From assembly GCA_050084515.1 (NCBI GenBank), contig CM114271.1, positions 26,040,001 to 26,104,000 on the forward strand: a stretch of 64,000 nucleotides of DNA, read 5' to 3'. The position numbers and the translations under genes are program-made. Positions 19,441 through 55,690 of this stretch are shown one piece after another (position 1 is the stretch's first letter; each line of letters begins with the position of its first letter). The notes under the pieces are model-generated. The model saw nothing but the letters and a program-made list of their open reading frames with translations. It was not told where the DNA came from and did not search any database. Origin of the DNA: Blasia pusilla (Eukaryota).

Positions 19441-20049
19441 GTGAGGGACTAATCATGTTGCACAAAAAAATTTTTTAATTTCCCGTTGTTCTTAGAGGGA
19501 AACATTTTTTTGCGCCTGTACAATAGACCAACCTAAACAAGTACAATTCAAGATAAGTGAAAGGTTGAGAAGGGTGACAAAGTTGAGAAAGGTTAAGTGT
19601 TGGCAAAGGTTAAAAAAATTCATATGATTCTATTGATGGTAGTCTTTTGAAAGCTGCCAATTGTACTCGTCCCAAAATCAGTTTGCAATGAAAATGTTAT
19701 GTTGTTGCATGAAACAAAGGTTCTCTTTGAGGCAGCTTTGTGAGGGATTTTCTTGCCAATATTGGACATAAGTAGTTTACTGTGCTAATTAAAGTCCAAT
19801 TACCTTGTTAAATACAAGCAGATCTGCTGATACCAGAAAGAACTAAGCACATAAGTGCTCACCATCATTGCATTGAAGAGCTGATACAGAAGTAGATTCA
19901 TATGAGCAGTGGATTGTAATACCAATGATATGGTGACAAAAGCATCCCTCTTTACACATGTTTGCGTTCCATACGTTCCATATTTTCAATGTTGTTTCGT
20001 GTTCAAGGGTGGTGAGCGCCTCCAGAGCCTCGATATGGAATGTATAGAA

Positions 20050-23000
20050 TATTGAAGATTGAGTTACAGTCAAGCTCATGAGACACTTGAACTGCTATAT
20101 TTAGTACTCACACGAAGTAGGGAAGCTTAATCTTGGTTAGTCACTTAATCATGATTATCTTAACTAGGGTTAGTTAATCACAATTAGTCTAACTCGAGAC
20201 TATGGTTAAGGTTGCTTGTACATACCTTAATCATACACAATTGAAAGGGGACCAGACTCCACCCATCTCTCATTGCAAATTTTGTTCTCCATGGTGGTGT
20301 GTGAGTGTGAGAGCCATTTCCCACCAATTATGCTTCTTTAGTAGTTTTCCACATGATATCAGAGCGATAGGAGAATATTACTTGAAATTCTTGGTGTTTG
20401 AGGAGAGAAGAGAGGCAAGAGAAGGCACAATTTCAGTTTGGGAGAAGGAAATTTTGTTCAGAGCTGAGTGGATGCAGATTTTAGGTGGAGCTTTGATGGT
20501 GATAAAACTTTAGAGGTGTTTTTGAGGGCTTTCCCAGTCAATTTAGCCATCTAGGTCCACAGCGGCTAGGACGACGCCGAAGGCTCGTTCTAGGATAACG
20601 CCAAAAGCTCATTCTAGTTGGATACCAAAAGCCTATCTATTCATCTTGTAGAGCTTGTCAAGAGCTTTCTAACGCATCCAAAATCGCTTGATTCTGACAT
20701 TCTGAGCTCTTGCAGTAACAATTTCAGTATACGAAAGTGCAATTAGTGAAGAAAAGTTGCGCAGTTTGCTTTCTACAGGCCAATTTCGACTAGTTCTTTC
20801 ATACATTTGATCAATTTTGGAAAATTTCAGGTCAATTTCTATGTATGAGTGGTCTATGCTTCAATAGGAGCAGTAGAGAGCCTGAAATTACGTTTTAGTC
20901 AGTGAAATCGTTCGCCATGAAGTATTCCTCAACAACAATCACAAGCGAGAAGCTAGATAAGCAGAATTACAATGTTTGGAAGTTTCGCATGAAAAAATTT
21001 CTCATTGGTCAAGAACTATGGGAGCTTGTCACAGGTGATGAGGCCAAGCCAGAAGATGACTCAATAGACTTGAATATTCGCGCCTGGAATAAACGCGCAA
21101 GTAATCCAATATATTTCAATAACGATCAGTTTGCCAATGATAGGTCATATTCAAGATATTGATATTTCGAAGGAGGCCTAAGATGCATTAGAAAAGCTGT
21201 TCCAGACATCTACAAAGGCCAAAAAGCTTCAATTGAAATAATAATTGAATAAAGTGAGGAAAGGATCACAACATCAATGATTATATTTTGAGTATTAGAC
21301 GTATTGTTGATAAGTTGAATAGCATTGGAGTGATAATAGAAGATGATGATCTGATTTTGTTCACTTTTCAAGGCCTTCCGAAGGATTACAAGTCCTTTGA
21401 GACCTCTATCTCTATGAGAGAGAAATATCCAACTTTTCAAGAGTTAGTCCCATGGTTAATCAGTGAAGAGATGCGCCTAATATGCAGCGATAGCTCGTCT
21501 AGTTTGCAAGAGAGTGCGCTGCTTATAGGTTATGGATCAAAAAGAGGTAGGCATCGTGGCAGAAGCTTCCGTGGTCATGGTGGATATCAAGCATATGGAG
21601 GATGAGGCACTCAATGTAACGTCACTCAATCAACTACTAACCAATACTAGACACAATCACAAGGTGGTGATGATGGAAACCGTTGGGGTGAAGATCAACA
21701 GCAGAAGGTCCCTAGATCTTGCAATTACTGTGTGATAAAGGCTCACTATGCAAAGTTTTGTTTCAAGAAGAAGGCACATATGAGAACAAGAGCCTTACAA
21801 CAACAAAACTATGTGGAGCATCAACACTAAGAGCAGTACCAAGAACGACAACATTCACAAACGGAGTATCTCTTGGTCATCACTCATCATATGGGAGCAA
21901 TGATCAAGAAAGACTCGATAGCAGATTGGTACATTGACTTTGATGCATCAAATCACATGACCTCACAAGCTAAATGGTTCAGTAGTTTGGAGCCAGTGAA
22001 AGATCCTGCAATTGTGCTCTTGGAAATGTTCTCTATGTTCCTACCATTGTAAGAAACCTGATCTCTGTAGGACAGATAGTAGAACATGATTCTCAAGTGA
22101 AGTTTAACGTACATGGTTGTTTCATTGAAACAATGGATGACCAAACTACGATAGCCAAAGGAACTAGATCTGACAGAATGTTCCAATTAGATGTTTCTAT
22201 GCCAGAGATTCAAACAACAATGTATCGTTAAACCCACCAACAAGTCATAAATCTAAATATGTGGCATAAAAGAATTGGACATATGAATCTTCAAAGATTA
22301 AAGAGTTTTTCATCATCTAATATAGTAATAGGACTCCCTAAATTAGCGAGGTCTGCTACATTAGAGGTATGTCCTACTTGCCAATTGGGAAAAAAGGTAG
22401 ATTTCCTTTTCCAAAGCAAGGTAGAAGAGCATCTAGGATATTGGAGTTGATCTACAGTGATGTGTGGACAACATCACAACATAACCTTAGTGTTTGCTAG
22501 TACTTTCTTTCATTTATTGATGACTTCTCTAGGTATATATGGGTATACTTTCTGAAAGCCAAGTAAGAGGTATTCTCAGTGTTCCAAACATTCAGAGTTC
22601 TAGTAGAGAAGAAGATTGGAGAAACATTCTAAAATTGCCTTGTGAAGGAGGAGGAGAGTATCTTTCAACAAAGTTTGATGACTATTTACGTTAGAATGGC
22701 ATCCAACGTCAAGTGACTTGCCGTTACGTTCCACAACAAAATGGAGTGGCTGAGAGGAAGAATCGACATATTACTGAAGTGGCACGAGCTATGTTGAAAG
22801 AGAAGAACATGCCTAAGGTGTATTGGGCAGAGGGTGTAGCATGTGCAGTCTTCTTTATCAACCGAACTCCAATAGCAAGAGTTCATGATAAAACTCCATT
22901 CAAAGTCTTCATAGGAAGTAAACCTGATTTTTCCTTCTTGAAAGTATTTGGTTGTATTTGTTATGCTCATGTTCCTTTTGAGAGATGTCAGAAATTAGAC

Positions 23001-25311
23001 CCCAAGTCTGAAAGATGTATCTTCATTGGCTATGCTGATGGAACTAAGAGATATAAGTGCTACATTCCATCCTCTAGGCAGTTTATTATTAGTCCAGATG
23101 TTGTCTTTGATGAGCTAAAGTCCTGTTATGCTCCATTTGAGCCTATTCCACCTCTAAACTTGTCTGTCGAGGGGGAGAATATAATTGTAAACCAACAAAC
23201 ATTGTCTTCAACTTCCCCAAGTACTAGTGCACGATTAGGAGAGTCATAGATTCATCAGTTAAATTTATGAGTCTATGAACGGGAAGAGTACGTATTCAGT
23301 CTGTTGACACTAGTTAGAGCTCAAGTCAGGTGTTAGAGGCATCTACCTTTGAACAAAAACTTCGTAAATCAAGTAGAGTGATACATCTAGTTCATAGATT
23401 CATAAATGAAGGTTTCCTTATGACACATCATGCATATATGATGACTACCCTTCAAGAATAGGAGCCGAGTTGTTTTGAAGAAGCTTCAAGTAAAGTCAAA
23501 TGGATTGAAGCTATAGAAGAAGAGCTTGTTGCATTAAGACATCAACAAACATGGGAGCTGGTTGATATACCTTCCGATAAGGAAACTCTTGGTTGCAAAT
23601 GGGTTTACAAAATCAAGCGTAATCAAGATGGCACAATTAATAGATACAAAGCGAGATTGGTGGCTAAGGGCTATGTACTACAATATGACATCGATTATGA
23701 GGAAACATTTAATTTTGTTGCAAAGATGGCGACTACGAGAACAACGATTGTAGTTTCACTAAGTAAGAAGTGGAGATTACATCATATGGATGTCAAGAAT
23801 GCCTTATTGAATGGAGATCTATACGAGGAGGTATATATGACTCAACCACATGGATACAAGCATCCCAAGTTTCCATTTCGCGTATGCAGGTTGAAGAAAG
23901 CTCTATACGGGCTCAAACAAGCTCCAAGAGCTTGGTATGGCAAGATTACATATGTCCTACAAGAGTTGGGTTTAAGGGTATGTGATTTTGACTCCTCGTT
24001 ATATCTCTTGAGAGAACAAGATCATACGGTTCTCATTATGTTGTATGTTGACAATCTCTTGATTATTGGGAGTATTGAAGAAATGGTACAACAAGTCAAG
24101 CTTAAGTTACAAGGAGAATTTGATATGAAGGACTTTGGAGAACTCAAGTACTTCCTTGGTATTGAGTTTATCAAGGTTGGAGAGAGCATGTCATTAATAC
24201 AACCGCAATATGCTCTTCATATGCTTTCAAACTATGGTATGAAGGCTTGTAAGCCAATCTCTACACCGTTGGACCAAAGTGTGAAGCTAAGAGTGGATGA
24301 AGGAGAGTTTCTTGCATATTCTAATATGTACAGGCGCACGATTGGAAGTTTGATCTATCTAACTATAACTAGACCAGATTTGAGCTATGCTATTGGCCTA
24401 GTGAGCCAGTTTATGCAAGCATCTCGAAAACCTCACCTTGATGTTGTGAGGAGGATTATGCGGTATGTGAAATTCTCTATTCAATTTAGGCTTCAATTTG
24501 AACCTTCTCCGAGTTTTCAATTACAGGGATTCACAAATACAGATTGGGCAAGAAGCCTATCTGATCGACACTCCACATCTGGTTATTCATTTACTTTGGG
24601 AAGCGCAACTATAAGTTAGACTTCAAAGAAGCAAGATACATTTGCTTTATCTTCAACAGAGGTTGAGTACAAAGGAGCAACCAATGCAGCATGTGAGACG
24701 GTGTGGCTTCATCAATTACTTGTTGAGATTGGTGTTAGTCACTTAGGACCCAGTGTAATATACGAAGACAATATTAGTAGCATCAAGATTGCTAATAACC
24801 TTGTGTTTCATGCTCGTACAAAGCATGTTGAGATGCACCATCATTTTATCAGAGAGAAAGTGCTTGCAGGAGAAATTGATCTTGTGTATATAGGTACAGA
24901 TCAGCAAATTACTGACATCTTTACGAAGGTATTGTCTAGAGATAAGTTTGAGATGTTTAGAAATGATTTAGGCGTTAGAGAGATCGATATGAGCTTGAGG
25001 GGAAGTATTGAAGATTGAGTTATAGTCAAGCTCATGAGACACTTGAACTGCTACATTTGATACTCACACGAAGTAGGGAAGCTTAATCTTGGTTAGTCTG
25101 TTAAGCGGGATTATCTTAACTAGGATTAGTTAATCACAGTTAGTCTAACTTGAGACTATGGTTAAGGTTAGGGTTAGGTTTGCTTGTACATACCCTACAT
25201 AATTGAGAAGGGGACCAGCCTCCACCCATTATCTCATTGCAAATTTTGTTCTCCATGGTGGTGTGTGAGAGCCGTTTCCTATGAGTTATGGTTCTTTACC
25301 AATTTTCCAAA
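20050..25311 (+). mobile_element. Full-length degenerate Ty1/Copia LTR retrotransposon
   Basis: LTRs 20050-20353 and 25006-25311; PBS TGATATCAGAGC 20354-20365; PPT GAGGGGAAG 24997-25005; TSD TAGAA/TGGAA. Copia order gag-PR-GAG-pre-integrase (WHKRIGH)-INT (PQQNGVAERKNR)-RT (LYGLKQAPRAW, YVDN)-RNase H (HARTKHVE). Many stops and frameshifts. Confidence 0.96.
20918..25018 (+). pseudogene. Copia gag-pol polyprotein (disrupted)
   Basis: ORF fragments 20902-21162, 21288-21605, 22259-22450, 22713-23249, 23657-24619 and 24701-25018; RT YVDD changed to YVDN. Confidence 0.93.
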
Positions 25312-26121: not shown

Positions 26122-27485
26122 TATCTGAAACGACAAGCTCTAAGCATGCCCAGGTTTAGCAGTTGCTTGCAATGTCTTGCCTTGTTGTGGCAGGAGTATT
26201 GCCTACGATTATGCACAGCGCCACTATAATCTTATGAATGTTTAGTTCTATATATGTAGACATAGTACACTAATGTAGCTGGGACATCCCCTCTAGATGT
26301 TAGTTGGTATTAGGGCTGATCTGGTGTCCCTGTTGAGGGACATGGTCTTGCAGATGCAGTTGTGACAAATCAACAAAAAATGGGGGGAACGAATGATGGA
26401 GGCGATGCACACAATAGCTGCTTAATATATTGGCCAGTTTGGATCTTTGTGCTGGCATGTTCATGTGGTATGAAGGTTGGCAGCATTGGCATATGGATAT
26501 CTGGAAGGGGTATTGTATAGGGCCTCCAATAGTAACTGCATTGGATTATTGTCTGTTAAAAGGGTAAACCTTAACAAACTTCAGAATTGTAAGTATGGAA
26601 TTCAGTCAAGGAGCATGTATGAAGATCTGCCTATCTGAGGAGCATATACCCATAGTTCCCACAGCCATAGCTGTGAGCTCCCACGAATAGAGGACATCTT
26701 AGGGTTGCTGCTTACACCTTATATGCAGACCCTTAAATCACACATACTGAGTCTGGAAATAACTCTAATCTATTTTCTACAGAATGTGACAACAAAATAT
26801 CCCTACGAATATGCCCAGTTGTTTGTGAAAACCATGCTTAGAGAGGATAGAGAAGTAGAGAAACTGCACATAAGGTTAATCACTCATTGAAGGTCTACAA
26901 TGATTGCAGCTGAAAACCTTGATAAATCCCTGAGTGATGCACAAGTTTCTTTTTGGAAAGGGGGTGTGGGTTTATATGTTGGGATAGACCATACCACTCA
27001 AAAAAATTGACAGAAGTGATGTTTTAATGAATGCGAGGTCTGAAGAAGATTTTCTAATTTCTGAGAGTCATTGGAACTTGAGAGAGCAGGTTTCCCTTCG
27101 TTTCGGCTCATTTGGAGCCATATAGAGAAACTTACTATTTTGGGTAAGTTTTTATATTTGGTAGAGTTAACTTTCCACTTTAGGAAGTGGTCCTTGACTC
27201 GCTACAGCAGGTCAAGAGCTAAGGAGGTGACTTGTGAGCATAGGTTAGCAAGGAGAGAGCTTGGGAGAGGGAAGGGGGTATATCTCAAGGAGAGAGAGCT
27301 TGAGAGCTCATTCTCTCTTTGTTGAACCTCTTGGCACGTGGCAACGGAACTATGGTACCTTTCCTTATGAGTGTAACCCAAGCCTCTCATTAGGAGAGTG
27401 GGTTTGGTTTGACATTGAGAGAGACATGTGAGAGTGCACACATTTGAGAGCTATGGTGTTTAGAGAGATTGGATCTACTTGATTT

Positions 27486-27500
27486 ACAAAGAGAGAATGA
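27486..27500 (+). promoter_or_regulatory. Self-priming-type PBS of element A
   Basis: ACAAAGAGAGAATGA is the exact reverse complement of TCATTCTCTCTTTGT at 27308-27322, about 30 nt downstream of a TATA-like GGTATATC. Confidence 0.75.
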
Positions 27501-30500
27501 ATGGAGTGAGAGAACTTCATGGGGGAGCTCGTTGGTTGCTCGATGTGTGTTGCAGCTTGGGGGATCGTGTTCTCCGCTTCATGGCTCATAGGAGTGCTCA
27601 CCGGAGCTAGAGCCGCGTGAGTTTGCTGTTTTGATTTTCCTATGGGAGAGTGGTACGTGGAAGTGTTGGCCAATTTTTTATGGGAATTGAGTATGGGGAT
27701 GGATTGCTCCATCTTGGTGCTCTTGGAAGCACAATGTAGCTTGCTGGTTTGTTTTGTGATAGGTTTCACATTTTTTTGGGAGAAATCAGCGTGGAAGCGT
27801 TGCTAAATTTTGCGTAGGAGAAAGAGACGTTGGGCTGCACGACAATCCCTGTGAGTTTTTGGTGGAAAATCAAATAGAAAAACCAATTTGACAAGATCGG
27901 GAAGTTGTGTATGCTGCTGAAGAAATAGTGCACAATTTGGAGATTAGAGCACGGAGTTATGATCATTTTTGTTGGGCTGCCATCACCACCGTTCCAAGGT
28001 GTGAGTGAAATCTCCAAAATCCTTGGGTAAAAATCCTTGTTGATAGGTAGAAAAATAAAATCATGTTTCATCCTAGGAGATTGGACAAAGGAAAATTTCA
28101 GTTGAAGTAAGATTTTTTTTTAGGGGGGGTGTTGACCCTCAATTTTAGGAGAGAATTGTGAGAAACCCTCAAACTGCAATCTGTCAAAAGGGGGAGCAAT
28201 CAAGTAAGAGGCAAAAATAGTGGGGATCCGGAATTCTAGGGGGTTATTTTAGTTAGGAGGAAAAAAAATTGTGGTCAATCCGCTGCCGCGCAACCGCGGA
28301 CTCTTTTGCGACCGCGGTACGTTGCCGCATACTACCGTCCGTGACTGGCCTGCCAGAGACGCACTTCCCGGCTACGCTGCTATTTCGGATTTTCCGCCGG
28401 CATTTTCTTTGCCTGCCTGCCGCTTGTCTCCATCGCATCTCCGTAGCCGCCCGCCTTGCTGTCCCTGCTGGAGCCGCCGACGATCGCTTGCCGACCGCCT
28501 CTCCGTTGAGCCGCAGCTTCCGGCGCTCTATAAACGCGACCGTAGCCGCGTCCTTCTCCCGCCCTTCCGGCTCGCGGCCGCTGGATCTGGGCCATTGGGC
28601 TTGCACGCCGCTCTGTCGCCGCCGCTTCCAACCGTGCGGCTGTCGCCGCTCTTCCATCATTATTGTCGCATGCAAAATGTGAATTTGTGGTCTTTCCGTG
28701 TTGTGATTTCCGTATCGTTACGGTCGGACCCGCACCGTTCATTGGAGAGATTTTAGCATAGTCATTATTAAAGGAATATGATATGCTGCTTAGAAGTTTT
28801 GTCTCCACCGTCGAGTTGAGGTCGATATTTATAATTATTGAGGAGCGACATCGATATTTGTTCATGTTATTCATTCTGGTCTTTTGCCCTGCCATGTTGG
28901 GGAATTCTGGGTAATGGGCTGTTATATGGGATATTGAGTTTCGTGTTGATGCCCAAAGCATCATTGATGTATGGGTTTAGGGGACATAGACATGTGTGGG
29001 ATGTCCAGAGTTGAGGGTGTGTGATGTCGATGAGATGATAAGACAACAGACGATTTGCCGTACCATGCTGCTTGTTGCCGCAAAGCACACGTCTCAGTGA
29101 GAGAGTATAGCTTGAGTGCCGCATGTTAGATTGAGTGATTGGGTGATTACTCTCGAGGTTGATAGTGATTGTGTGAGAGGAGCACGAGAATCATCAACGC
29201 GTCCTTTTAGGACTTTGAGAGGCGAGGTGGTGGACCTGAGAGTAACTCTAGAGGATTTATCCGGAGTGGTGCGAGGTTACGAGAGTCTCCAAGTGAGAGA
29301 CCGCTTCAATCTCCTTCTGTGTCGTCTTCAGATAAGGGGGAGAGTATGGAGGAGTGTGCTAGTGATCCACCGCACACATTGAGTGGTCCTACCAGTTGGG
29401 TGTACGAGATGGACGACCGGGGTAGAGAACCGCGTAGGTTTTCGGGTGCTAAAGGCACTATAGAGTTACACGACTTCATGGCGGAGTTTAGGAGTTGGTG
29501 TGACTCATAGCACGCTAGGAACTCTAGATAGTTCAACCCATTTACAACATGGAACGGAATTTTCCAGCATTTAGAGGGGCACCCATGGACGATTACAATG
29601 AGATCTCGCAGAGATATGACCATGAGATTGAGGCCTTCAGACTCTTCTATGACCCATACTATCTGTTATGGATTGAGCCGTTTCCAAATGAGGAGGAGGA
29701 GTCAAGAGAGGGTTCCTCCACCAATGATGTTGTAGGAGGGGTGACTCGCACTAGAGCTGTTGCATCGTCTAGTCGAGTTTTTCCGAGGTTCAACCCCGTG
29801 CTTGAGTTCTTCGCTGAGTTGAGGGCGAGCTACTAAGGAGTACGGACGGGGAAGTTACGGAGCATCCACAACTTCCAAAGGCGCCCGGGTGAGAGTTTGC
29901 GTGAGGCCTACACCCGCTTGCGCCGGTTGATTAACGTCACTCATGGGATGACAGAGGCTCAGGCTATCCAGTCATGGTACGCGATGCTGGACCGGACCCT
30001 GCGGACTCGTGTGCGGAGGGGATGCTTCTTATGAACACCTCCCCTATGTTGAGAGATGTTTTTAGGACCACCGAGAACATTGAGCGCAACATGGCGGAGG
30101 AGACCGTAGCCACCATGGGTTTTGGGCGAGAGCAATCACGATTGCCTACAACACCAATGCAGCAGCATGGATTCCGAGATAAGTCTATGGCACCACGAGC
30201 TCAGGGAGGATACCGGGAGGCCGTGCCATAGAGACCTGCGCTTTCATATGCGGCTCAACAGCAAGCGCCTCCGATTACCTGTTGGTCATGTGGCGGAGCC
30301 CATCATTAGCGTGATTGCACTCGTCAGGGTCATGGTCGCATGGAGGAGGAGATGGTACTGTACCAGCAGGTTATTTGTGTGACTATTGTCACACTAATAA
30401 CACACGCGCCAGGTGTTTCAGCTTGCACTGTGAGTTGCATCCGGCTAGGGCTAGAGAGGATTCGAGAGCGAGTTGCCGGATTGGGTAGGCCTAGAGGTCG

Positions 30501-31619
30501 TGCACCAGGTGGTCCTTTTGGGGGACGAGGAGTTGGATTCGCCCGAGGGGGTGGTGGAGTTGCCCGTGGAGGAGGTAGAGTCCCACCACCTAGACGTGTC
30601 GAGGGAGACGTTGGGCGTGAGGTTGGGATGGCTGCTCAGATACAACAGATACAGAAGCATATTGACGATATGGCATTGAGGTTACCCAATGCCAGATGTG
30701 TGGCATCATGTTTAGAGGTGATTAAAGAGGAGGTGATGGACGTGCCCTTAGAGCTGATGCTTGGGTCGTCCACGTCAGATTCATGGCAGGCTGCGGCTGC
30801 TAGGATGGCGGAGATGCCCACTAGACCCGCAATAGAGAGTGCCATGGCTTCTCCTGCTCTTGGTTTGTTGGATAACCGGGGAGAGGTCTTCCAATTGGTG
30901 AGTCTAGGAGGTAGAGCTTTTAGTCTACAACGCATCTTGTTGGATTCAGGAGCACAACCCCTCATGTTGGGGAAAGTGGCATTCAAAGGTTTGGGCCTGA
31001 CGAGGGTCGATGTGGAGCGTTGTCCATTTTGGATACAAAAATATTTGAGTGGAGCGAGTACCACACAGTATATCGTCTGATAGGAGGTCGTGGTGAGGAT
31101 TCTCCAGGGACATCCTACAGATGAATTCATGGTACGAGCCAAGGCAATAGTGACTGATGCAGAGTCCTACAACGTCTTGGTTGGTGGAGCAGTGTTGTAC
31201 CCGATGGGGTTTTTAGTGGATTAATAGGAGAAGTCAGCCTCCTACAGACCAGGATGGCAGTTAGGTGATGGGCGCCTCAGCTCATTACCCATTCGATTCA
31301 TAGGTGCAGTGATCGAGCAACGGCCAGGAGAGATGGCGACCTTAGCAACATTTACCGGCGTCATCACTTGGCCTAGTGATTTGATTGAGGGACATATCCA
31401 TGTAGAGAACACTCTCGTTCCTGACATGTCTATGGAGAGGAGTGTCATGGTAGCCGCATAAGTCCGTGGAGCAGAGGTGCCACTTTGGGGCTCGACTAAG
31501 GAGCTTCGATGCTTAGCCACTGAGCATGTACAGATCGCGTGGAGCGAGACATTTGCACCAGAACGTGACGGGTTAGAGAAACCCGAGGTAGCTGAGAGTG
31601 CTATGATGACGCCCTTGGA

Positions 31620-32620
31620 TACCACACCCATTGTGTGGCGCATCCTAGAGGAGGGTATTCGAGTGTTGGATCTCTTTGGAGGGATCACCACTGGATTAGT
31701 TGCTGTTTAGCAGGGAGGAGTATGCGTGCAGTAGTACCTGTATATGGAGATTGATGATGTTGCAAGGCGCGCTTCACTTCACCATGTGGCGCAGTTACGC
31801 CTCCATTTTTTTGACTTTTTGTGTGCATCCGCTATCCAGGGATACCGGAGTTCCCTACCGAGGGATAGTTCATTGCTGGGGACGCAAGACTTGGAGCGGG
31901 TAGGGACCATAGACTTGGTCATTGCTGGTTGGCCGTGTCAGGGCCAATCGAGTGCTAGACAAGGTAGCGGGTTAGTTGACACACGGTCCAGGTTATTTTG
32001 GGAGATGATGTGGAATTTGCAACACTTGCAGGAGCATTAGTCCCGTTCTCCAGCATACATTCTGGAGAATAAGCCGATCTTGGGCGATTCGAGGTCAAGG
32101 TGGTGACGAGTGCACATCAAGTGTGTACATGGATCGACTCAATAGTATTTTTGGATGCGGCGAGTGTAGGTTCTAGAGCACACGGCCCGCGCCTTTGGTG
32201 GACCAACTTGATCGCACATGAGGTTTTGCGGAGGGCTTATGCAAGAGTGGAGCACCCCTCCGATTTGTTGGTGGATACTATTTTGGATCCAGGTCGTCAA
32301 TCACACGCAGTGAGGCACGATGATCGATCACCGTTGACTATGGTCAAGAGGATTGGCATGCGACGAGCAGTCTTTCCCACATTTTTGAGTTTTCCCGCTT
32401 CTTATGTAGTCAAGGAAGCCATACCTGGTTTGGTTTGGGATGACCAAGTACAGAGGTTGGTGGAGCCCAACGCCGATGGGCACGAGCGAGCGATGGGATT
32501 CCCCACTAGAGTGACGGTAGTATCATCACTATCAGAGGCATCACGACGTCTTTTCTTGGGTCACGCGATGGACCTGAATGGCTTGACATGGATTTTCAGC
32601 TTAGGCGTAGTTGAGCAGCA
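31620..32620 (+). pseudogene. C5 cytosine DNA methyltransferase domain within Pol of element A (disrupted)
   Basis: Motifs in order: VLDLFGG (I), EID (II), DLVIAGWPCQG (IV), YILEN (VI), RAHGPRLWWTNL (VIII), ERAMGFP (IX), LGHAMD (X). In-frame stops and a frameshift. Confidence 0.92.
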
Positions 32621-35600
32621 TCGTTTGAGGATGCGACAGATCACAACTATTGCGTTGGTGAGCCCCATACATGCCAAGATGGTTGAGGCAGTGGCCGGGG
32701 GCCAGATCGAGGAGATCGACATACTAGGGGTGATCGGGAGAGACACATTTGAGGAGATTGACACACCAGGGGTGATCGAGAGAGACACCCTTGGACTTCT
32801 TGGGATGTTTTGCACGTACGCCATGAGATGGTAGCCACAATATCGAGCGTGTTACTACACATGGAGGAGATCGGGTTTTACAGTTGGATGTAGGAGATCA
32901 GCCGAGTGCAACTGTCCGAGACGGGGTTGCACCATAGCAACCACCTACATCCGGGCCGGAGAGTCCTACTGTAATCACGATGGAGACTTGGGAGCGTGAC
33001 ATAGACCCTAAGTTCACAGGAGGAGAATGGCGCCGGATACATCAGTTCTTGAGGAGTTATAGGAGTTGTTTTGCATTTAGCATGCAGGATTTGGGTATGC
33101 TAAAGTGTCCAGGGATCCGCATTGAGTTGTCGAGTAACACACCGATCTTCCGACGATCCTACAGGTACTGTGACATGGAGAGGGCTCTAATTCAGAGTAG
33201 GAGCCAGGATTTGGTTGGAGTAGGACTAATGGAGATGTCGCATGGAGAGTATGCATCTGCCACTGTCATGCCCGCCAAGAAGGATGTGCATGGCAACTGG
33301 ACGGATAGGGGTATGTGTGGAGATTACCAACCTATCAATCGGCAGACAAAGTCTGATAGGTATGCCATGCCCATCCTAGAGGAGATATTTGATGCGATTG
33401 GGCATGCAAAGATCTTCAATTCATTGGATTTGCAAGCCGGATATCATTAACTGCCTATCAGATTGGAGGACACGCAGAAGACCGCATTTTGGGGCATCGA
33501 TCCTCACGGGAAGGATTGTTTGTACCAATGGAGGTTCTTACCATTCGGGTTTACGAACGCCCCAACTGAGTTTCAGAGGATCATGGATCATAGATCTTGG
33601 CAGGTTTGGATTTTGCTAGGTGTTATATTTATGACATCGTAGTCTTTAGCGCCACGGTTGAGGAGCATGAGCGACATCTAGAGGAGGTGTTCCGACGATT
33701 GTAATTACATGGGCTAAAGCTACATCCAGGCAAGTGCAAGTTCTTCTATGACCAAATTGAGTACTTGGATCATACATATACCCAAGGGGCCTTGGTGTGC
33801 AACAGACGAAGGTAGAGGCTATTTCACGCATTCCATGCCCTACATATGTGAGTTGAGTTCGTGCATTCATGGGATTGGAGAACTTCTATCGATGTTACAT
33901 CAAGGGTTTTAGTTTGATTGCAAAGCCACTAACCTTGCTAACTAGGTGGATCAGGAGTGGCACTCGGGGGATGAGCACGAGAAAGCATTTCAGCTGCTCA
34001 CGGACAGATTGACGTCCGCGCCCATATTGAGGAGATCGATCAGGGGGCGTCCTTTCCAATTGCATACCGATTGGAGCATGTTGGGGCTTGGAGCCGCGCT
34101 CACCCAACATAATGATGATGGTAGAGAGTTTGTGGTGGCTTACGCAAGTCACTCAAACAACGTTGCAGAAGCGAAGTATAGCTCGTATGAGGGTGAGTAC
34201 TTGGCTGCGGTGTGGGCTATCGCACATTTCAGTTGTTATTTATTCGACAACCCCTTTACCATCATTACCAATTATTAGCCACTTAAGTGGTTGATGGAGT
34301 CCGACAAGCCCACAAGGAAGCTTGCGAGGTGGGTTCTTTTTTTGGAGGAGTATGACTTCTAGGTGGTGCATAGACCTGGGATACTCAACCAGGATGCAGA
34401 TGGTTTGAGCCATAACCCATGCTCGAGTCAACAAGATGCAATTGGAGCTTGTTGGCATGGTGAGAGTGATGAGGAGTTGGTGCCAAGATGGCACGCGCCA
34501 GCCAATTTGGGACTACTGGCTATGGAGAGCCAGATTGCCGAGACTTTGATGGTGTGGTCTGATGGAGAGTTCTTGGATCCAGAGGTTGGTGAGGAGACAA
34601 CAGGTGGCCGAGATATTCACGACGATGGAGTGGTCTTGGAGTACCTACGTATTGGCAGTGTCGCGAGCATAGTGGTTGCTAGAGAGCGGGATTGGATCCT
34701 ACAGCAAGCCAGACGGTTCGGGTGGGAGGGGACACATGTGTTGCGAGTTTGGGAGGATGGTAGAGTCCGTAGAGTGCCTCATCCTTTGCAGAGAGCACAT
34801 TTGGTGCGTCATGCCCATGAGGAGTTGGGTCATTTTGGAGTGAAGCGGACGTACAACTTGCTCCAGATTCAGTATTGGTGGCGAGGCATGAAAAATGACG
34901 TTTAGTAATTTGTTGCCAGGTGGTGTGTGATCGAGTTTGGGCATCGTTCAATGCTCCGACTCCACAGTTACATCCACTTTCGATTATGGGTTTAGGTTAT
35001 AGATGGAGTTTGGATTTTGCAAGACCTTTACCTTTGGCGAAGCGCCATAGTCGGTATGTGTTGGTGATGGTCGAGCACTTCTTGAAGTAGATAGAGTTGG
35101 TTGCATTGCCTGAAAAAGAAAGTGAGGGAGTAGCATATGCCTTCCTAGATCAAATGTTGAGTCATTATGGTGCAACAGTTTAGGGTTTGACAGACCAGGG
35201 TACAAAGTTTCGCCAGGAGTTTCACGCCTTGTGTGATCAGGCACTGATCCACCATCGCACTACTTTGCGAGATCATCCTAAGGCGGATGGACTAGCGGAG
35301 CGGGTTTTGCAAACGGTGAAGAGAGGATTACGCAACTATGGCTTGTAGAGAGGTTACCTAGGAGATTGGGACCTCCAGTTACGGTGGTTGGCGATGGGAT
35401 ACAGATTCAACAGACAAACATCCTTAGCGTCTTTCTCACCGTACATGCTGCTCTATGGCCGAGAGCCAGATTTACCTACGGCCATTTGTCGAGAAATTGG
35501 TGAAGTTTTGAACCTTGATGACCATGATGTATGGATGCGAGCATCTTCTCAGAGGGCTAAGTTATTTCGGAGAGTGATGCCCAAGGTGTTTGAGAACTTG

Positions 35601-35794
35601 GTAATTGCGCAACATCGGGATACATTGAGGTATGCGACTATGCAGGGAGGTGGTTATCGACCTACTATCCGGAGGTTTCATCAAGGAGACTTTGTCTACT
35701 TGCAATAGATGGCACCAACAACGTTGGATGTGACTGCAGGGCGCACCATCTTGAGAGCGCGTGAGATTTTGCCATCTGGTGTTCTCTTGTTGGA

Positions 35795-36182
35795 TTCTCA
35801 ACATCCACTTCTCTGAGCACCATTAATCTGATCGCCCCCCTTGTATGAGGAGAAGCCTAGATTGATGGTTCCGACTTAGACGTCAAAGGAGTCATAGTAA
35901 TATGACGTAGGTGGTTTCAGGAGTAGCGTTACGAGGATTATCTAACCCAATTTTGCAAATTTTATCTATTAATAGAAACAAAGAAAATTAGGTAAAAACC
36001 GTAGTTTCTCGAGTAGTGAAATAGTCGGGAGCCGTAGCGGTAGCGCATTCTCGTATGTCGAGTTATCTCCATATTCAGGTTTCATTGAAGCTCTTATGTG
36101 AGCGCACGGACGGACTAGGCCACTTTGTATCTCTAGGTTTTGTAAAGATTTCAGTGATTTTGTCACTTTCTGTTTTCTCATA
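35795..36182. mobile_element. Unclassified 388-bp insertion in the integrase C-terminal region of element A
   Basis: Flanked by TCTCTTGTTGGA (35783-35794) and TCTCTTATTGGA (36183-36194). Removing it restores LPSGVLLLEGRDG; elements B and C lack it. Confidence 0.75.
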
Positions 36183-39100
36183 TCTCTTATTGGAGGGACG
36201 CGATGGTATGGTTTGGAAGGACCATGTGCGTAACTGTGCGCGATGTCATCTTCCAAAAATTGACGGTATAATTGATCCGAGCTTAGCAGTAGTTCCTGTA
36301 GGCTTGCGGTGTATGTTGTGTGGTTCAGCCACTACGCTAGTCTGTGATGGGTGTTCGAGAGGATGGCATATGGCATCTCTGACGCCATCTCTCACTAGGG
36401 TTTCTGAGGGACGATGGATGTGTCCCAGATGTACATAGAGTAGGTAGTTCTAGATTCAGACTTGTGTCTGTGACATGGATGACAAGAAGGGGACTAATGA
36501 TGGGGCCACATGAGCACCCAACCTTTTTGCTCTTAGCGTCCGAGAGATGTATATCATGGTAGGTAGGGATAGATGGCTACCTGGAGTTAGAGGGACCTAA
36601 CCACCAACTAGGGGGGCGATTGGAGATATTTTGGTACTTCTTGTCTCGTTGTTTGGATGACATGAGTTAGCATGGGATTTTACGTGTTTGTGTGTATGTT
36701 TGTCGACAACGATGTATGTTGTGTAGCGATGTGTATGCCCACGACAGCTGTCATGACTTTTCAAGATAGATGAGAGAGATCTGGTAGAGCGCCTTCACGA
36801 GTAGAGGAGGACACGCTCAGGAGGTCGAGGATGACGTGCTGAGGTCTTGAGAAACCTGAGAGAGCAAGTTTTCCCTTCGTTTCGGCTCATTTGGACCCAT
36901 ATAGAGCAACTTATTATTTCGAGTAAGTTTCCATTTTTGGTAGAGTTGAATTTCCACTTTGGGAAGTGGCCCTTGACCTAACCTATGGCTCTTGACCCGC
37001 TACAACAGGTCCAGAGCCAAGGAGGTGACTTGCAAGCATAGGTTAGCGAGGAGAGAGCTTGGGAGAGGGAAGGGGGTATACCTCAAGGAGAGAGAGAGAG
37101 AGAGAGCTTGAGAGCTCATTCTCTCTTTGTTGAACCTCTTGGCATGAGGCGACGGAGCTGTGGTCCCTTTCCTTGTGAGTGTAACCCAAGCCTCTCATTA
37201 GGAGAGTGAGTTTGGTTTGATATTGAGAGAGACACGTGAGAGTGCACACATTTGAGAGCTATGGTGTTGAGAGAGATTGAATCTACTTGATATATTGGAA
37301 ATATTTTGGTACTTCTTGTCTCGTTGTTTGGATCCCATGAGTTAGCATGGGATCGTGCGTGTTTGTGTGTATGTTTGTCAACAACGATGTATGTTGTGTA
37401 GCAATTTATATGCGCACAACACAGCCATTAGTAGCACATAGTAGTAAGAGCAACTGATGACCTGCAATTGGCAAACAAATTACATAAGAACAGAGAGGTA
37501 GTGCCCCGTATGAAAAAACGTAGAGGAAAATTTGAACACGGTGGCTTGCATTGCTAGATCAATGTTTTGCACTATAATCATCGGAATCAAATGTACTTAG
37601 GAATCGCAGGTTGCCACAAAGACGTTCGCAAGGGACACGAACTTAGAACCGCCACTGCAAGGAAACAACAAAGTATGGCGGCATGGTAGATCAGGATTAC
37701 AATTCCAGGAGATAGTAGGCAAAGATGAGGAGAGACCATCAATAGAGATAGGAAAGGAATGAATACGATTATGGCTGTAAGCCCTTGCGCTATGTAGTGA
37801 AAGCTAATATGGGCCGAACCTGGTGGAGGCGGCCAGTTACAGCTACAACAAATGCAGCCTATATAATTGCCACTCCCTAAAATAATGCAATTGCAAATCC
37901 ATGCTGTGGCGGACATTGTGCACGATTGGGCAGTAAGGCCGCTAAGATCGCAAAACAAAAAGATTCATCCAATGTGAAAAGACCTAAGAATTCAAATGGC
38001 ATAGCGTCCTAGGCCTTGGCGCAATAAAGAGGATGAAGAGCTTACAATAAGTTGTAACACGTATGTAAACTCAGCTTCATGAGGACCTGATTGCCAGAGA
38101 AGCACGCAGCCGCGCCATTGCATCCATGCCCCAAGCCGTTTTATTCTTACTAAGAATGGATAGGGATGCAATTGTGCATCAGAAATGAGAGACTAAATCT
38201 GTGTTGCGACAACGACCATACTCCTTGACAATAAGATAGCATCACAATTGCAATTGCGTTGTGGAGAGTGCATACACAATCTAGACATGACCAACATCCA
38301 TGGCCTATTGATATTGTCTGGAGAACAATTTATAGAGGCTGAATACCGCGAGCGGCGAGTCAGCAATCGAGAGCATAACACAGGAAGCATGAACTACCGA
38401 CAATAGTGGAAAACAATCCCAATGAATGGACACCGACAATTCCGTGTTTCCCTGTTTAGAACTCGAGTCTACCAAAGGCGTAACTCGCTCATCCGATGCT
38501 CTCACTGGTGAACACTTCTTGTGTGTAGCCATCGTAGCCTTCTTGCTGTGGCTGAAGCAAATCTCGAGGCTTGCGTAACAATCCATCAGCCAAACTAGTG
38601 ACGCATACATGTATTAGACACGTGGACACCTTGCGCGGTCTCTGCACTCCGAGGGATGTGTTGCGACCATTAGGGACGGTGGCAACACGGAGGGAGGCGG
38701 ACAAAGCTTGTGCACGTTGTAAGGCTACTGAGATATATTGCCAAAATTAAGGAGTGACTACAAAGAGAGAAGGACTATGAAGCAGTGATGGAGGCGGATG
38801 GGGACGGTGGAGGAGGATGCCATGGAGGGAAGGAGGAGGGAGATGGTTCGTGTGATATACCAAAATGGAGATCTCAGTCTCCTCTACGTTTTGATCCGCA
38901 TCATCGATCTTATAGTGAAGTATTTTTTGTTTTATTATGTTTTTTAGATTCTTGGTCTTATTATGGTTTCTCATGTAGGTATTATGATGCCCTTTGTTGT
39001 CTTGCCTCATTGTCAAGTTATGGACGTTTCCAAGATAACTCATGTTTTTCTTTCACACCACCCCTTTTTCTCTACATCCTTCCCTTTTGGCCATGCATAT

Positions 39101-49543: not shown

Positions 49544-52500
49544 ATATATAGCATTTAGATTTAGAAGATGACAATTCTTAGTTAGACGGACCTAATGAAC
49601 CTAATCAAAAGCTAGGAGGATGATTGGGGTGCTTCCATGTCATTTTTGGCATCGTATTTGAATACGATGCCAAAGATCATGATCGTATTTGAACTTACAC
49701 AATCACCCAAACCTTGTGGACACAACACCTTGATATATTTATATTCAAATAAAATCAATGATAACCTCACAAGACCTTAGGAAGACCATCACCTTAATTG
49801 TAATCAAGATTTGAGGGACTTTGTAAGCTAGCTCAAAGTTTCTTTGAGCTAACAATTTTTGTAATTTCCCTTTTACCTATAACGAGTAGTTTCTCATGAG
49901 TGAATAAGTAAATTGAGATCTTTGGGTGTCGCTTGTCACTCAGCTCTTGTGAAGCTCTCTTCCCGTTCCATTCCACATGAACAAGAATGCGGCCTTGGTA
50001 TTGTCAAAGAAAGGGTAGCAAATATAGTAAGCCATGAAGTTGAGTAGACATCAATAAAGCAACAATATAGGAGGGAAAAGTGAATGCCTTTTGTGAAATG
50101 CCATCGGGGCATGCTGCAGATGGTTGTATACAATATAAAGACTGACGTAGTTTTCATTGACCATAACGATGTAGGATACCAAGGTGTGATGCGTGCTGAT
50201 GTTAAGTTTAGCTATCGGGCTCGAGTCGTCTTATTAGCGTCGGATGAAGACAAAAACTTCGATTGGCGGACTTTCGTTTGACTAGTTACTAGCTAAGATG
50301 GCTTAGCAAAGTCTTCCTATATATTCTTCAAGCCTATATATAGGTTTGATAGAGTCTTCCTAGCTATCCAGGGTGGGGTGACCCTTATCCCCATAAATAG
50401 CTGCGCCTTTTCTTGCGTAAGGCTAGTCTTAGGGCGCATGCTTGTCTCACCTAGTGTTAGTCCTACGACTGGTTTCCTCATTATTCGTAGTCTTGTGACT
50501 ACCTAGTCTACGTTTAGACTTTGGTGAGTGAAACCAAAGTCTTTCCTCTATGGACAGACGATCATAACTTGCTTCTCGACTCCCTTGTCGTGCGAATCCA
50601 CATCGTAATACAACATACATCGCTGACATACCATACTCACATACATACATAATATAGATGAGAGCATCCACAAACACAAGTGTACCACAACTGAAATCCG
50701 TGAAAGAACTAATGTCATAAAACACGTATAGAATCACATACAATCGAACCAAACCCACTCCACGATGGGAGAATCCAGTCGAAGCTTGCGGGAACCATCA
50801 TAGCCAAGAGCTCTACTCACTACCAAGGCTAACTCCAAACGCAAGAGGCTCAACTCAAAGAACTAACTGTTCTTTGAGTGCACTCCACACTATATCCTCC
50901 AACCTAAGAGCGGGCCCTACTGGAAAAGTCACCCTCAACTGAGTCACCCTCAACTGAGTAACCCCCAACCCTATGTATGAAACCGCATCTCTACCTAGAC
51001 ACTACGGCCCTACATAAGGTATGGCCTCTACTAGCACACTATACTCTACAACATAATCCGTACGGTCATGACAGTTGTCGTGCGAATCCACATCGTCATA
51101 CAACATACATCGCTGACATACCATACTCACATACATACATAACATAGACGAGAGCATCCACAAACACAAGTGTACCACAACTCGTCCCCCTAACTGGCGG
51201 TTAGGTCCCTCTAACTCCCAGTTAGCCCTATACATCTACTACATGCTATACACCTTCGTGGGTGCACGAATCAGAAGGCCGGGTGCTAGGTTGCCCCATC
51301 GTTAGTCGCACATCTGTAATCCATATCATGCAAAGATCAAGTCATCTACCTCTCCTAAGTACATTGAGGACAAACCCACCTTCCAGTAGGAACAACATCC
51401 ATACGTGGACTCAAACATATCATGTGCCAACCCCTAGAACACCGATCAGACACCAACATACGGGCTGCGTTACCAGTAGACCCATACAACATGCACCTCA
51501 AGCTAGCACGTATCATGGCTAAGCTCGGGTCAACAATACCAATCACATTTGGAAGATGACATGGCCCACAATTACGCACATGGTCCTTCCAAACAACTCC
51601 ATCACGACCCTCCAACATGAGAACTCCAGAAGCTAACACCTCGCGCACTCGTAAAATAGTGCGGCCTGCCGTCACATCCAACGTTGTCGGTGCAATCTGA
51701 TGCAAATAGACATAGTCCCCCACATGGAACCTACGAATCGATGGTAAATAACCTCCACCCCGAATGGTTGCATACCGCAACGTATCCCTGTGTTGAGCAA
51801 TGGCAAGATTCTCAAAGGCAGTTGGCATAACTCTCCAAAAGAGCTCTGCCCGCTGAGAACACACTCATCCACATCTTTGGGTCATCAAGGTTCACCACCT
51901 CACTAGACTCCGACAATTGTCCTTTGGCAAGTCCGGATCTCGGCCGTATAACAGAAAATAAGGTGAGAAGGAAGCCAAGGATGCTTGGCGACTGAACCTA
52001 TACCCCATGGCTAACCATGGTAACTGAATATCCCAATCTCCAAGATGCCCCTTCTGTAGGCCATACTTGCGCAATGCCCTCTTTACCGTCTGAACCACAC
52101 GCTCAGCCAAACCATCTGCCTCTAGATGATCTTGAGACGTGGTCTGATGATCAATCAACGCCTTGTCACACAAGACCTGAAACTCACCCCAAACTCAGAC
52201 CTTGGTCGGTCAAGACTTCATTTGGTGCACCAAAATGACTAAACACTCTATCAAGAAACGCATAGGCCGTTCCCTCACTTGCCTTGTCAAGTAATGCCAC
52301 CAACTCAATCCACTTGGAGAAGTGGTCCACCATCACCAACACATATCGATGATATCGTACAGTCAACGGTAACGGTCCCGCAAAGTCCACACTCCAACGG
52401 TAACCCAACCCCATAATAGGCAAAGGATGTAACTGTGGTGTAGGGGCATTGAATGATGCCCTCACCTGGTCACAAACCATACAACGTGACACCAACTACT

Positions 52501-54704
52501 GCACCTGAGTATGCATGCCACGCCATCAATATTGACCAAGGAGTAAGCTATACGTACGCTTTACCCCAAAAGGTCCCAACTCCTCATGGGTATGTCGCAC
52601 AATGCGCTCTCTCTGAGCCAAATGCAACACTACTCGTACTCTACCATCCTCCCACACACGGAGAATATGTGTTCCCTCCAATCGATACCTCTTAGCACAT
52701 TGAAGAACACGGTCTCGCTCCTTGGCACTCACTATGCCTGGCACCCTACTGGTCCGTAGGAACTCCAACACCAACGCATCATCATGAATATCACGTTGAT
52801 CTGTACCACATCTCTAACCTTTGGATCTAAAGGCTAGCCATCTTCCCTCTGACAAGAGTAAGATGTCATGTGGTCCTCCATACTAGAGTCCACCCCTAAC
52901 CAACATAAAAAGGCAGATGCATGCCCACCTGGCACCATCTCCTCATCAACCTTGCTATGCCATCTAGCCCCAGTTGCATCCTCTTGGCTAGTACATGGGT
53001 TCCTACTCAACCGATCAGCATCAAGGTTGGCAACTCCAGGTCTATGTACCACCTGGAAGTCATACTCTTGTAAGATAAGAGCCCACCGTGCAAGCATCCA
53101 TGTAAGCTTGTCAGACTCCATCAATCACTTGAGCGGCTGGTGATCAGTAACAAGGATAAACTGTGTGCCAAACAAGTAACACCTAAAATGTGCCACAACC
53201 CACACTACTGCCAAGCACTCTCCCTCATATGAACTATAGCACGACTCCGCTGCATTATTCGAACGACTTGCATAGGCCACCAGAAACTCCATGTGCTCAT
53301 CATCATGTTGTGTCAACACCGCTCCAAGTCCCAACCTACTCCAATCAGTGTGTAACTGAAATGGGCGTCCTTTGATAGGTCTCCTCAAGATAGGCGCCGT
53401 CACCAAATGGGCCTTGAGCTCCACAAAAGCTCTCTCCTGATCATCTCCCCAGTGCCACTCCTAATCTGATTTCAGCAATTGGTTCAAAGGCTTTGCCATA
53501 ACACTAAATCCCTTCATATACCTCCAATAGTAGTTTGCCAATCCCATGAATGCCCGAACTCTATTCACATCTACTGGATGAGGAATAAGTGCAATAGCCT
53601 CCACCTTTGCTTGCTGAACTCCCAAACCACCTGGATAGATCACATGACCCAAGTACTCAACATCCTCATGGAAGAACTTACACTTTCCTCGATGCAAACG
53701 TAGACCATAAGCTTTCAACCGATCAAACACAATCTGCAAATGTATCTAATGCTCCTCCACCGTGTTACTGAACACCAAGATATCATCAATGTTACACCGG
53801 AAAAATCCAATCATGCTAGGATCTTGTCCATGACTCTCTGAAACTCGGCACGTGCATTCTTAAACCCAAAAGGTAAGAATTTCCACTGGTACAAACAATC
53901 TTTGCCATGAGAGTTGACACCCCAAAATGCTTTCTTGGCCTTGTCACTCTCGCGAATTGGCAACTGATGGTATCCTTCCCGAAGATCCAAAGTACTGAAA
54001 ATCTTTGCCTGTCCCACCACATCAAAGATCTCCTCAGGTGTAGGCATGGCATACCTATCGTCCTTGGTTTGCCGATTGATAGGACGGTAATCTCCACACA
54101 TCCGCCTATCTGTGTAGTTGCCATGCACATCCTTTTTAGCACGCATGATAGTGGTTGATGCATACTCTCCATACAAAAACTCCACTAATCCAACCTCCAA
54201 AAGGTCCAACGTCCTACTCTGAATCAAGTCCCTCTCCATATCACTATATCGGTAGGGATGACGGAAGATTGGCGAATCACTAGCCAAATCAATCAGTATA
54301 TTGGGTCCAACCAAAGCACCCAACTCCTTCATGCTTAAGGCAAAAAAACTCCTATAAGCACGTAGGAATTGTGTCAAGCGTCGTTTCTCACCTCCCCTAA
54401 GCTTGGGCCCAAGTAATGGCTCCCAAGTCTCCTCCACTAGCACCCTAGAGGGAGAGGATGATGCCATTGGCTGCTATCCAACCCCCTCACAAGATGGTAC
54501 ACCCTTAGCTACACCATCATCTGAGCAAATAACTCCTTCACCAGCATGAGCAACCAACTCCACATGCCCAACCATTACATCCCATTTACTCCAAGGATGC
54601 AAAATACTATCTTCCTCGCCCCCAACCGATGTCTCTACCGTCCCGTTAGCCATTGAGCTCATCACAAGGGGTGGAAGACCCATAGACATAGTCCAAAATC
54701 GACG

Positions 54705-55690
54705 TTACTCGGCCATCCTAAGACTCAAAATCCAGGTCAAACAATTCAGGTCCATGGCCTGACCCAACACATGACGTCGTGAAGCCTCAGAAATGGAAGC
54801 AACCGCTGTCACACCAGTAGCAAATCCCATCGCACGCTCTCTCTCATCAGCATTAGGCTCCACCAACTGTCGCACATGCGAATCCCATACAAGCCAAGAA
54901 TCACCTTCCTTGTAGGCATGTGACGAGGGAAAACTCACAAATTTTGGTAGTGCTATCCTAGGCTGGCCCACACGGTTCACCACTGCCATGGGTGACCGAT
55001 CAATAACCCTCACCACCTGAGAAAGTTGCCCATTATCCAAGATAATATCCATTGTAAGGCAAGGATCCCGCTGCACTGCATCATATGCTCGACGTAGAAC
55101 CTCCCTAGGCAACAAGTTTGTCCACCACAAGCGTGGACGATGTGCACGCGAGCCAACTCGCGCTGCATCCAACAACACCGTTGGTCCAATCCAAGAACAC
55201 TCGCCATCATCCGGGTCCGAGTGTCATCCAATAATGGAACATTCTCTAGAATGTAAGCTGGAGCACGTGCCTGATGAACCTGAAGATGTCGTAACACCCG
55301 TAACATCTCCCAAAACAATCGAGACCTAGGGTCGTGTAATCCCTCACCACGACCAGCACGTGTATGACCCTGACATGGCCATCCAGAAATCACCAAATCC
55401 ATAGGACCAACGCTCTCAAGGTCCTGCGCCCCCAACAATGCAATGTGTGACGGCAAAGCACGATGGTACCCACGAATAGCTGATGGCGGCAACAACTCAG
55501 GATATCTCTGCATCAAGTGACCAATATGTCGGGATGAGACTCTCTGGGCCGTCTCATCTCGCTCCACATACACGTATCTCCGCACAAGAATACCGGCCTA
55601 CAATACTGCAGCCAAAACCACTGCTAATCCCACCAAAGAGATCTAACACACAAATGCCCTCCGGTGGATACTGCCATACAATGGGTATAG
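54705..55690 (-). pseudogene. C5 cytosine DNA methyltransferase domain within Pol of element B (frameshifted)
   Basis: VLDLFGG, YVERD, DLVISGWPCQG, YILENV, RAHRPRLWWTNL, ERERAMGF and LGQAMD. Confidence 0.94.

Follow-up and report, generated by a model that had tools for sequence, protein, structure and literature searches.

A head-to-head CA-nn-TG palindrome inside the repeat of permuted Ty3/gypsy-type elements in Blasia pusilla as a candidate integrase attachment site

The window considered here, a stretch of 64,000 nucleotides (nt) from Blasia pusilla (assembly GCA_050084515.1, contig CM114271.1, positions 26,040,001 to 26,104,000 of the forward strand), carries two diverged retroelements of ~9.9 kb each, element A on the + strand and element B on the - strand, which self-comparison shows to share the layout A1-interior-B1-A2-B2, with two segments, A and B, each present twice as direct repeats. 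A third copy, element C, lies beside element B. Our subject is the internal B1|A2 junction, at which the CA end of segment B and the TG start of segment A face each other across a spacer of two nt, and which an initial annotation had proposed as an integrase attachment site that supplies both ends of the element. The parts of the three elements, in positions of the window, are as follows.

27075-27486, + strand: A1 of element A, 85% identical to A2; first ~100 nt missing or diverged
29211-36438, + strand: decayed coding interior of element A, with many stops and frameshifts (DNA methylase, RNase H, integrase zinc domain, PHD finger)
36619-36746, + strand: B1 of element A, from self-comparison
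36740-36757, + strand: B1|A2 junction of element A, CACGACA-GC-TGTCATGAC, with spacer GC at 36747-36748; proposed paired integrase attachment site
36749-37293, + strand: A2 of element A, from self-comparison
37294-37421, + strand: B2 of element A, 91% identical to B1; last letters GCGCACAACA at 37421, then unrelated flank
50582-50585, - strand: target-site duplication AGGG of element B, 3' copy
50586-50691, - strand: B2 of element B, 97% identical to B1; joint with A2 reads ...GGATTTCA-G-TTGTGG; ends CACGACA at 50586
50692-51073, - strand: A2 of element B
51065-51082, - strand: B1|A2 junction of element B, CACGACA-AC-TGTCATGAC, with spacer AC at 51075-51074
51076-51180, - strand: B1 of element B
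51355-58541, - strand: coding interior of element B, with several frameshifts and stops (gag, zinc knuckle, protease region, C5 DNA methylase, reverse transcriptase, RNase H, DDE integrase, PHD finger)
60053-60435, - strand: A1 of element B, starting TGTCATGACC at 60435; 95% identical to A2
60436-60439, - strand: target-site duplication AGGG of element B, 5' copy
60512-64000, - strand: element C, 83-88% identical to element A, running past the window end

The full junction reads CACGACAGCTGTCATGAC in element A (36740-36757, +) and CACGACAACTGTCATGAC in element B (51082-51065, -), and both CA-nn-TG junctions are thus present as the initial annotation had described them, together with the palindrome GACAGCTGTC that it had placed at 36743-36752 in element A. 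The pattern CACGACANNTGTCATGAC has two matches in the window, neither with a mismatch, and these are the junctions of elements A and B, which occupy homologous positions of the two diverged elements; in shuffled sequence, with up to three mismatches allowed, the mean was 0.54 matches, and two or more were reached in 9/100 shuffles. The tail of segment B, its last ~40 nt, is common to both families (CGATGTATGTTGT ... CACGACA), a claim of the same annotation that is borne out by alignment and by the 13-mer CGATGTATGTTGT, which occurs exactly five times in the window, once in each of the five B copies. With up to two mismatches the 13-mer has nine matches in the window against a shuffle mean of 1.43, a number reached in 0/100 shuffles. 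The outer ends of element B are the two halves of the junction without the spacer, TGTCATGACC at the start (60435) and CACGACA at the end (50586), exactly as had been proposed. In element A the 5' end cannot be checked, as its A1 lacks a recognisable first ~100 nt.

Further copies came from a scan of metagenome contigs with CARCGATGTATGTTGT, which gave at least 120 loci whose relatives were sorted by blastn. Nineteen of these form a family, here called family M, related to element B at about 72-86% identity, and two others (L017 and L107) are members of a more remote family, where the scanned motif falls in the PHD-finger coding region. Junctions were counted in four families, taking the window and the metagenome contigs together, and the spacer is 2 nt long in all ten assembled junctions (GC in seven, AC in two and TA in one); the initial annotation had named a variable spacer as one observation that would speak against its proposal. 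Two of the junctions, in L029 and L041, were found additionally through a motif of the A start. In L017 the junction at the equivalent place reads CAACA-TA-TGAACAC, and its B2 also ends in CAACA. Element ends that fall elsewhere than at the junction were the other observation so named, and among the 22 listed B copies of family M, 17 give way to unrelated DNA immediately behind the terminal ...ACA, which is mutated in L083, L041 and L117, and the remaining five continue into nn-TGTCATGAC or its variant TATCATGAC. All four copies with both flanks visible have exact 4-bp target duplications: AGGG in element B of the window, and ACAC, GCTC and TGCC in the short A·B units L046, L066 and L078, the last of which has an internally deleted A. 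The TG...CA termini (TGTCATGAC...CACGACA) and the length of the duplication agree with Ty3/gypsy elements, whose target-site duplications measure 4-6 bp. A scan of a viral collection with TTTCACTCAAAGAA and of prokaryote genomes with the B motif gave 239 loci, none of them related to element B by blastn.

The 13-mer of the B tail recurs, with one or two changes, in the PHD-finger coding region of the same window elements (36307-36319 and 60951-60963), and in the distant family (L017:2500 and L107) an exact 16-mer was located in that coding region. Judged from these letters, segment B may derive from a duplicated 3' end of the coding region.

The predicted landmarks of reverse transcription do not bound the chromosomal copy, but bound a unit in which B precedes A. 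They lie in the two elements as follows.

27308-27321, + strand: predicted RNA 5' end and self-primer TCATTCTCTCTTTG in A1 of element A, 29 nt after TATAT at 27279
27487-27500, + strand: primer-binding site CAAAGAGAGAATGA of element A, just after A1; perfect 14-nt complement of 27308-27321
36610-36619, + strand: polypurine tract AGGGGGGCGA of element A, directly before B1
51181-51191, - strand: polypurine tract AGGGGGACGAG of element B, directly before B1
60041-60052, - strand: primer-binding site CTCAAAGAACTA of element B, directly after A1; perfect 12-nt complement of 60227-60216
60216-60227, - strand: predicted RNA 5' end and self-primer TAGTTCTTTGAG in A1 of element B

A polypurine run (AGGGGGGCGAG or close to it), with which a conserved block closes, stands immediately 5' of B1 in 13/13 B1 copies compared, and reads ATAGGGGGGTG in L017, so that its placement at the B start is kept in four families. 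The segment of A that is complementary to the primer-binding site lies about 175-180 nt before the A end, and in element B its A2 counterpart at 50865 follows a TATA at 50894 by 29 nt. When the leaders were shuffled, a pairing of the observed length was found in 0/2000 shuffles for element A (14 nt) and in 2/2000 for element B (12 nt). The pairing moreover covaries: the sequences differ between the families of elements A and B, with pairing and position kept. Folding of the predicted RNAs pairs the 5' end with the primer site, a result that is expected since the start point was chosen at the complement. The arrangement resembles the self-priming of Tf1, with an RNA start that is predicted. With a polypurine tract at the B start and a primer site after A1, the repeat made by reverse transcription should be B·A, with the CA-nn-TG junction inside it. 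A second copy of the primer site, CTCAAAGAAC, is found in A just upstream of the predicted RNA start (50869-50880 with 50854-50865); it forms a 10-bp hairpin with the RNA start, has an equivalent in family M (L035, ~2700-2740) and is imperfect in element A.

The chromosomal copies are permuted relative to this B·A unit. The 25 B starts listed follow a polypurine tract in 13 cases and an A end in eight, with one at a contig edge and three rearranged, and in none of the 25 does the B start abut unrelated flank. Since B starts never lie at the flank, no copy ends where reverse transcription should end. The joint between A2 and B2 (A end ...TTTCA, then G, then TTGTGG) is identical in 8/8 cases, and L066 shows one substitution. 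Judging by its letters, this joint of A end and B start at the full 3' ends is the one that would be expected from two ligated repeat ends. Classified by their 3' ends, the copies take the following forms.

B1-A2-B2: 8 copies (elements A and B of the window, L025, L029, L035, L041, L057 and L079)
Interior-B, then flank: 6 copies (element C of the window, L012, L024, L083, L091 and L117)
A-B-A: 0 copies

At its 3' end element C thus passes from its interior into a lone B (60634-60512), which ends GCGCATGACA and gives way to unrelated DNA, with no A2-B2. Element B is inserted 76 bp downstream of that B end in the same orientation (gap 60440-60511). Two rearranged copies are of a different kind. 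In L051:1640-2545 an antisense gag-like piece is followed by the part of A that reaches from near the predicted RNA start to the A end, then by 14 nt from the beginning of the leader, and finally by AG-B and flank, with an inverted piece of A at 1644-1748. In L114:1-345 an inverted A start (…GGTCATGACA) with the GC spacer still attached runs into the start of a B copy as AG-TTGTGG, and this B copy ends normally with CACGACA next to unrelated flank. By their make-up both look like by-products of the joining of free complementary DNA (cDNA) ends, each a single case.

The coding interiors encode the enzyme that such a junction calls for, a DDE integrase with rve and Integrase_H2C2 domains. Pfam matches in the frames of element B are, in order, Retrotrans_gag, DNA_methylase (C5), RVT_1, RT_RNaseH_2, rve and PHD, and those in the frames of element A are DNA_methylase, RT_RNaseH_2, Integrase_H2C2 and PHD. 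The methylase domain (PF00145) sits between the protease region and the reverse transcriptase in both elements; a comparison of the methylase fragment with PDB gave a weak match to M.HaeIII only. A scan of 29 open frames (13 of element B, and 16 of elements A, B and C) gave no tyrosine recombinase (Phage_integrase). The domain order gag-protease-reverse transcriptase-RNase H-integrase is that of Ty3/gypsy elements. Those carry one and the same terminal repeat at both chromosomal ends, whereas here A stands at the left end and B at the right. Between primer site and gag lie leaders of ~1.5-1.7 kb (58542-60040, -; 27501-29210, +), which hold no sense frame of 90 or more amino acids; several antisense frames of 90-130 amino acids in them have no Pfam match. 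The named relatives of the gag protein come from Marchantia, Sphagnum and Calypogeia (51-69% identity), and the lineage therefore extends into bryophytes.

Transcription of the family was seen in two stranded RNA runs mapped at 90% likeness, with about 4100-4200 reads each. Nearly all first mates map to the + strand; under the usual convention the RNA then has the sense of element B. Reads at least 99% alike to the window element number only 9-19, so that it is mostly other copies that are expressed. Coverage increases toward the 3' end and falls within A2 (109-169 at 50994-51340, 27-52 at 50647-50993 and ~0 at 50300-50646), a profile that fits an RNA ending within A2, read in coarse bins and with reads split between A1 and A2. 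The runs also contain a joint from 51040 to 60099 (- sense), with 3 reads in one and 10 in the other and the four letters GTAT shared, which links ~337 of A to ~34 of A and would correspond to a skip of 189 nt on an A-B-A template. It is absent among the rows listed for the DNA run. As an intron it was rejected, since GT..AG is found in no register.

Taken together, we propose that at the junction two integrase-recognised ends, ...ACA of segment B and TGT... of segment A, face each other at a distance of 2 bp inside the reverse-transcription repeat, and that the junction is used in a joined intermediate; we put the probability of this reading at about 0.6. Transcription would begin inside A, ~175 nt before the A end, and continue across the interior and B1, past the junction and into A2. 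The RNA 5' end would fold onto the primer-binding site after A1 and prime the minus strand as in Tf1, and the polypurine tract before B1 would prime the plus strand, so that with both priming sites in these positions the cDNA would carry a B·A repeat at each end. The outer cDNA ends would then be joined, A end to B start, into a two-repeat circle or a tandem repeat, an intermediate that we infer along with the nicks and overhangs that follow it. In the repeat copy that follows the joint of A end and B start, the integrase would nick each strand of the palindrome 3' of its CA, which would leave recessed CA-OH ends with 5' overhangs of 2 nt. Insertion of these ends would give what is seen in the chromosome, a 4-bp duplication around an A1-interior-B1-A2-B2 copy with TG...CA ends and no spacer. 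As the internal B1|A2 copy is transcribed, the site and its spacer are passed to the next generation. That the junction is a paired integrase site is supported by the mapping of the ends, the 4/4 duplications and the constant spacer. That one joined site supplies both ends, as the initial annotation had it, gains independent support from the priming sites, and the positions of those priming sites together with the permuted copies make a joined intermediate hard to avoid.

Several observations weigh against this proposal. Six copies end interior-B|flank without A2-B2, for which recombination or a different pathway could be the explanation: B1 may have recombined with B2, a one-repeat circle may have been cut, or an ordinary linear cDNA may have been cut at both internal sites. 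A symmetric circle with two sites should produce A-B-A-interior-B as often as A-interior-B-A-B, and yet the former was never seen, 0/8 of the B copies that follow an A end continuing into A, an absence for which the circle does not account. Eight of 97 junction variants from short contigs of the DNA run were decoded by hand, and about half of them lack a clean 2-nt spacer: ~4 have one (AA, AG, AC and GG), and ~4 have mutated motifs with an apparent spacer of 1 or 3 nt; these irregular variants are probably decayed copies. Element B of the window is the only full-length copy with both ends visible. The sole pile-up of read ends in A2 (50928, 6 molecules) lies off the predicted start and is too weak for an RNA end, and the RNA start and poly(A) site are predicted positions. 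Finally, all of the evidence comes from integrated copies, from which the circle, the cleavage product and the overhang are deduced.

The same final structure could arise without a circle, if the integrase were to cut a linear B·A-interior-B·A cDNA only at the left-repeat palindrome and insert both new ends, with the original termini joined by host end-joining. Cutting before joining in this way would explain the use of a single site, the left one lying ~110 bp from the DNA end, and would handle the missing A-B-A-interior-B form better than a circle does, and L114 has the expected look of a mis-joined cleaved end. L114 is, however, a single case, and end-joining should sometimes be sloppy, yet the A2|B2 joint is identical in 8/8; this route is in our view a minor possibility. 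The six copies that end interior-B|flank, and a layout equal to that of PAT and Ngaro (PMC4157794, PMC5890265), would also suit a unit A-interior-B whose ends are set at the junction during reverse transcription, with A2-B2 as a terminal redundancy of the kind suggested for the DIRS order and the polypurine tract and primer pairing as coincidences. A coincidence is difficult to square with a polypurine tract kept exactly at the B start in four families and with a primer pairing that covaries between families and exceeds shuffles, and the expected signals are missing from the ends of such a unit, as the B end lacks a purine-rich stretch and the A start shows no complementarity to the 3' end of a transfer RNA. 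We regard it as quite unlikely.

A repeat layout identical to that of DIRS, PAT and Ngaro elements raises the question of whether the junction is a tyrosine-recombinase core site, at which a circle is inserted by site-specific recombination. The 29 frames without Phage_integrase, a coding capacity filled by Gypsy domains including a DDE integrase, and the 4-bp duplications (4/4) and TG...CA ends typical of DDE integrases make this extremely improbable. Equally hard to credit is an ordinary element altered by accident, whether a solo repeat beside another copy, targeting of its own end or an assembly artefact: clustering does occur, as with elements B and C, but the layout and the 2-nt spacer recur in 10 junctions from four families, in independent assemblies and with different flanks, and the 4 nt that precede A2 are not repeated after B2. 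Two simpler candidates were ruled out. An A·B repeat with a damaged 5' copy does not agree with the lack of B after A1 in both families, and a tandem insertion of a solo repeat does not agree with an A2-B2 that has no flanking duplication.

A layout of this kind in a Gypsy element with a DNA methyltransferase (DNMT) had already been remarked on in 2018, and the polypurine tract and primer site are new here. The legend of Fig. 4c in de Mendoza et al. (2018) describes KnitGypsy-Dnmt3 of Klebsormidium nitens as having Gypsy domains and a DIRS-like repeat arrangement, and a spreadsheet supplement to that paper contains DNMT counts only (PMC5890265). Compared by description, KnitGypsy-Dnmt3 and the window elements share Gypsy-type domains, a C5 DNA methyltransferase inside pol and the A-int-B-A-B layout (PMC5890265). 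They differ in that section 9 and the Fig. 4 legend of that paper give no junction sequence, ends, duplications, priming sites or mechanism (PMC5890265), and in that the named relatives of the window gag are from liverworts and mosses, not from Klebsormidium. Apart from the remark in the 2018 legend (PMC5890265), our literature searches brought up no description of the junction, of the duplications or of the mechanism.

With canonical Ty3/gypsy elements such as Tf1/Sushi and Tcn1 the window elements share the domain order, the DDE integrase, TG...CA ends, a short duplication and a polypurine tract. The primer site complementary to the predicted RNA start may be a further likeness; Tf1/Sushi elements have been described as self-priming, and the plant Tcn1 clade is predicted to be so (PMC6317226). 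The likeness is one of domains and ends: the chromosomal ends of the window elements are not copies of one repeat, their integrase sites are internal to the reverse-transcription repeat, the copy is a circular permutation, and a PHD finger follows the integrase. From its sequence the element is best classed with Ty3/gypsy, of which it would be a permuted variant. Elements of the DIRS order are not known to duplicate their target site on insertion. PAT, Ngaro and TOC, which belong to that order, are built with split direct repeats (A1-interior-B1-A2-B2) whose internal B|A joint reflects the joined ends (PMC4157794), as are the window elements, which in contrast have a DDE integrase and 4-bp duplications, and no tyrosine recombinase in the scanned frames. 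The parallel drawn by the initial annotation with retroviral integrases is in print, as cleavage of palindromic 2-LTR (long terminal repeat) circle junctions has been described for foamy virus and HIV-1 (PMC1180852, PMC1905944). In those viruses, too, CA and TG ends stand head to head in a palindrome that integrase can open, but the viral palindrome forms only after ligation of the repeat ends and belongs to a side pathway, whereas the palindrome of the window elements is built into every repeat and is apparently the sole site used.

The remainder of the window, which is eukaryotic and plant-like in content, includes other features. A fragment of 77-127 nt at 12944-13077, distant from the elements and 73-84% identical to the middle of segment A of element A, may by its sequence be what is left of a solo A·B. 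At 4728-8420 (+) lies an intron-split host gene that encodes a CLC chloride channel with a CBS domain. Ty1/copia material (RVT_2, SH3_retrovirus and a copia-type gag) is found at 1-2122 and 20048-25175, with inverted copies at 1-2122 and 20048-22120 and direct repeats of ~165 nt at 20050 and 25006.

Beyond the reading of the junction itself, we see about even odds for a broader account, in which a streptophyte lineage of Ty3/gypsy moved its integrase sites from the tips of the repeat to an internal head-to-head palindrome and came to depend on permuted integration from a circle or tandem intermediate. It would be the first natural element whose retroviral-type DDE integrase has a junction-type site as its normal substrate, and the split-direct-repeat layout would have arisen before, and independently of, tyrosine recombinases. 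Whether circle-joined repeat ends serve as substrates of retroviral integration was debated from the 1980s, a debate that linear DNA eventually won. An element in which every chromosomal copy is permuted at a junction-type site would make the chemistry of circle junctions testable in a plant system. The A-int-B-A-B layout, which has been taken as a hallmark of tyrosine-recombinase retroelements, is shown by these elements to be attainable with a DDE integrase, which bears on the origin of DIRS elements. Software for finding LTR elements expects identical repeats at both ends, and elements of this kind will therefore be given wrong boundaries or missed.

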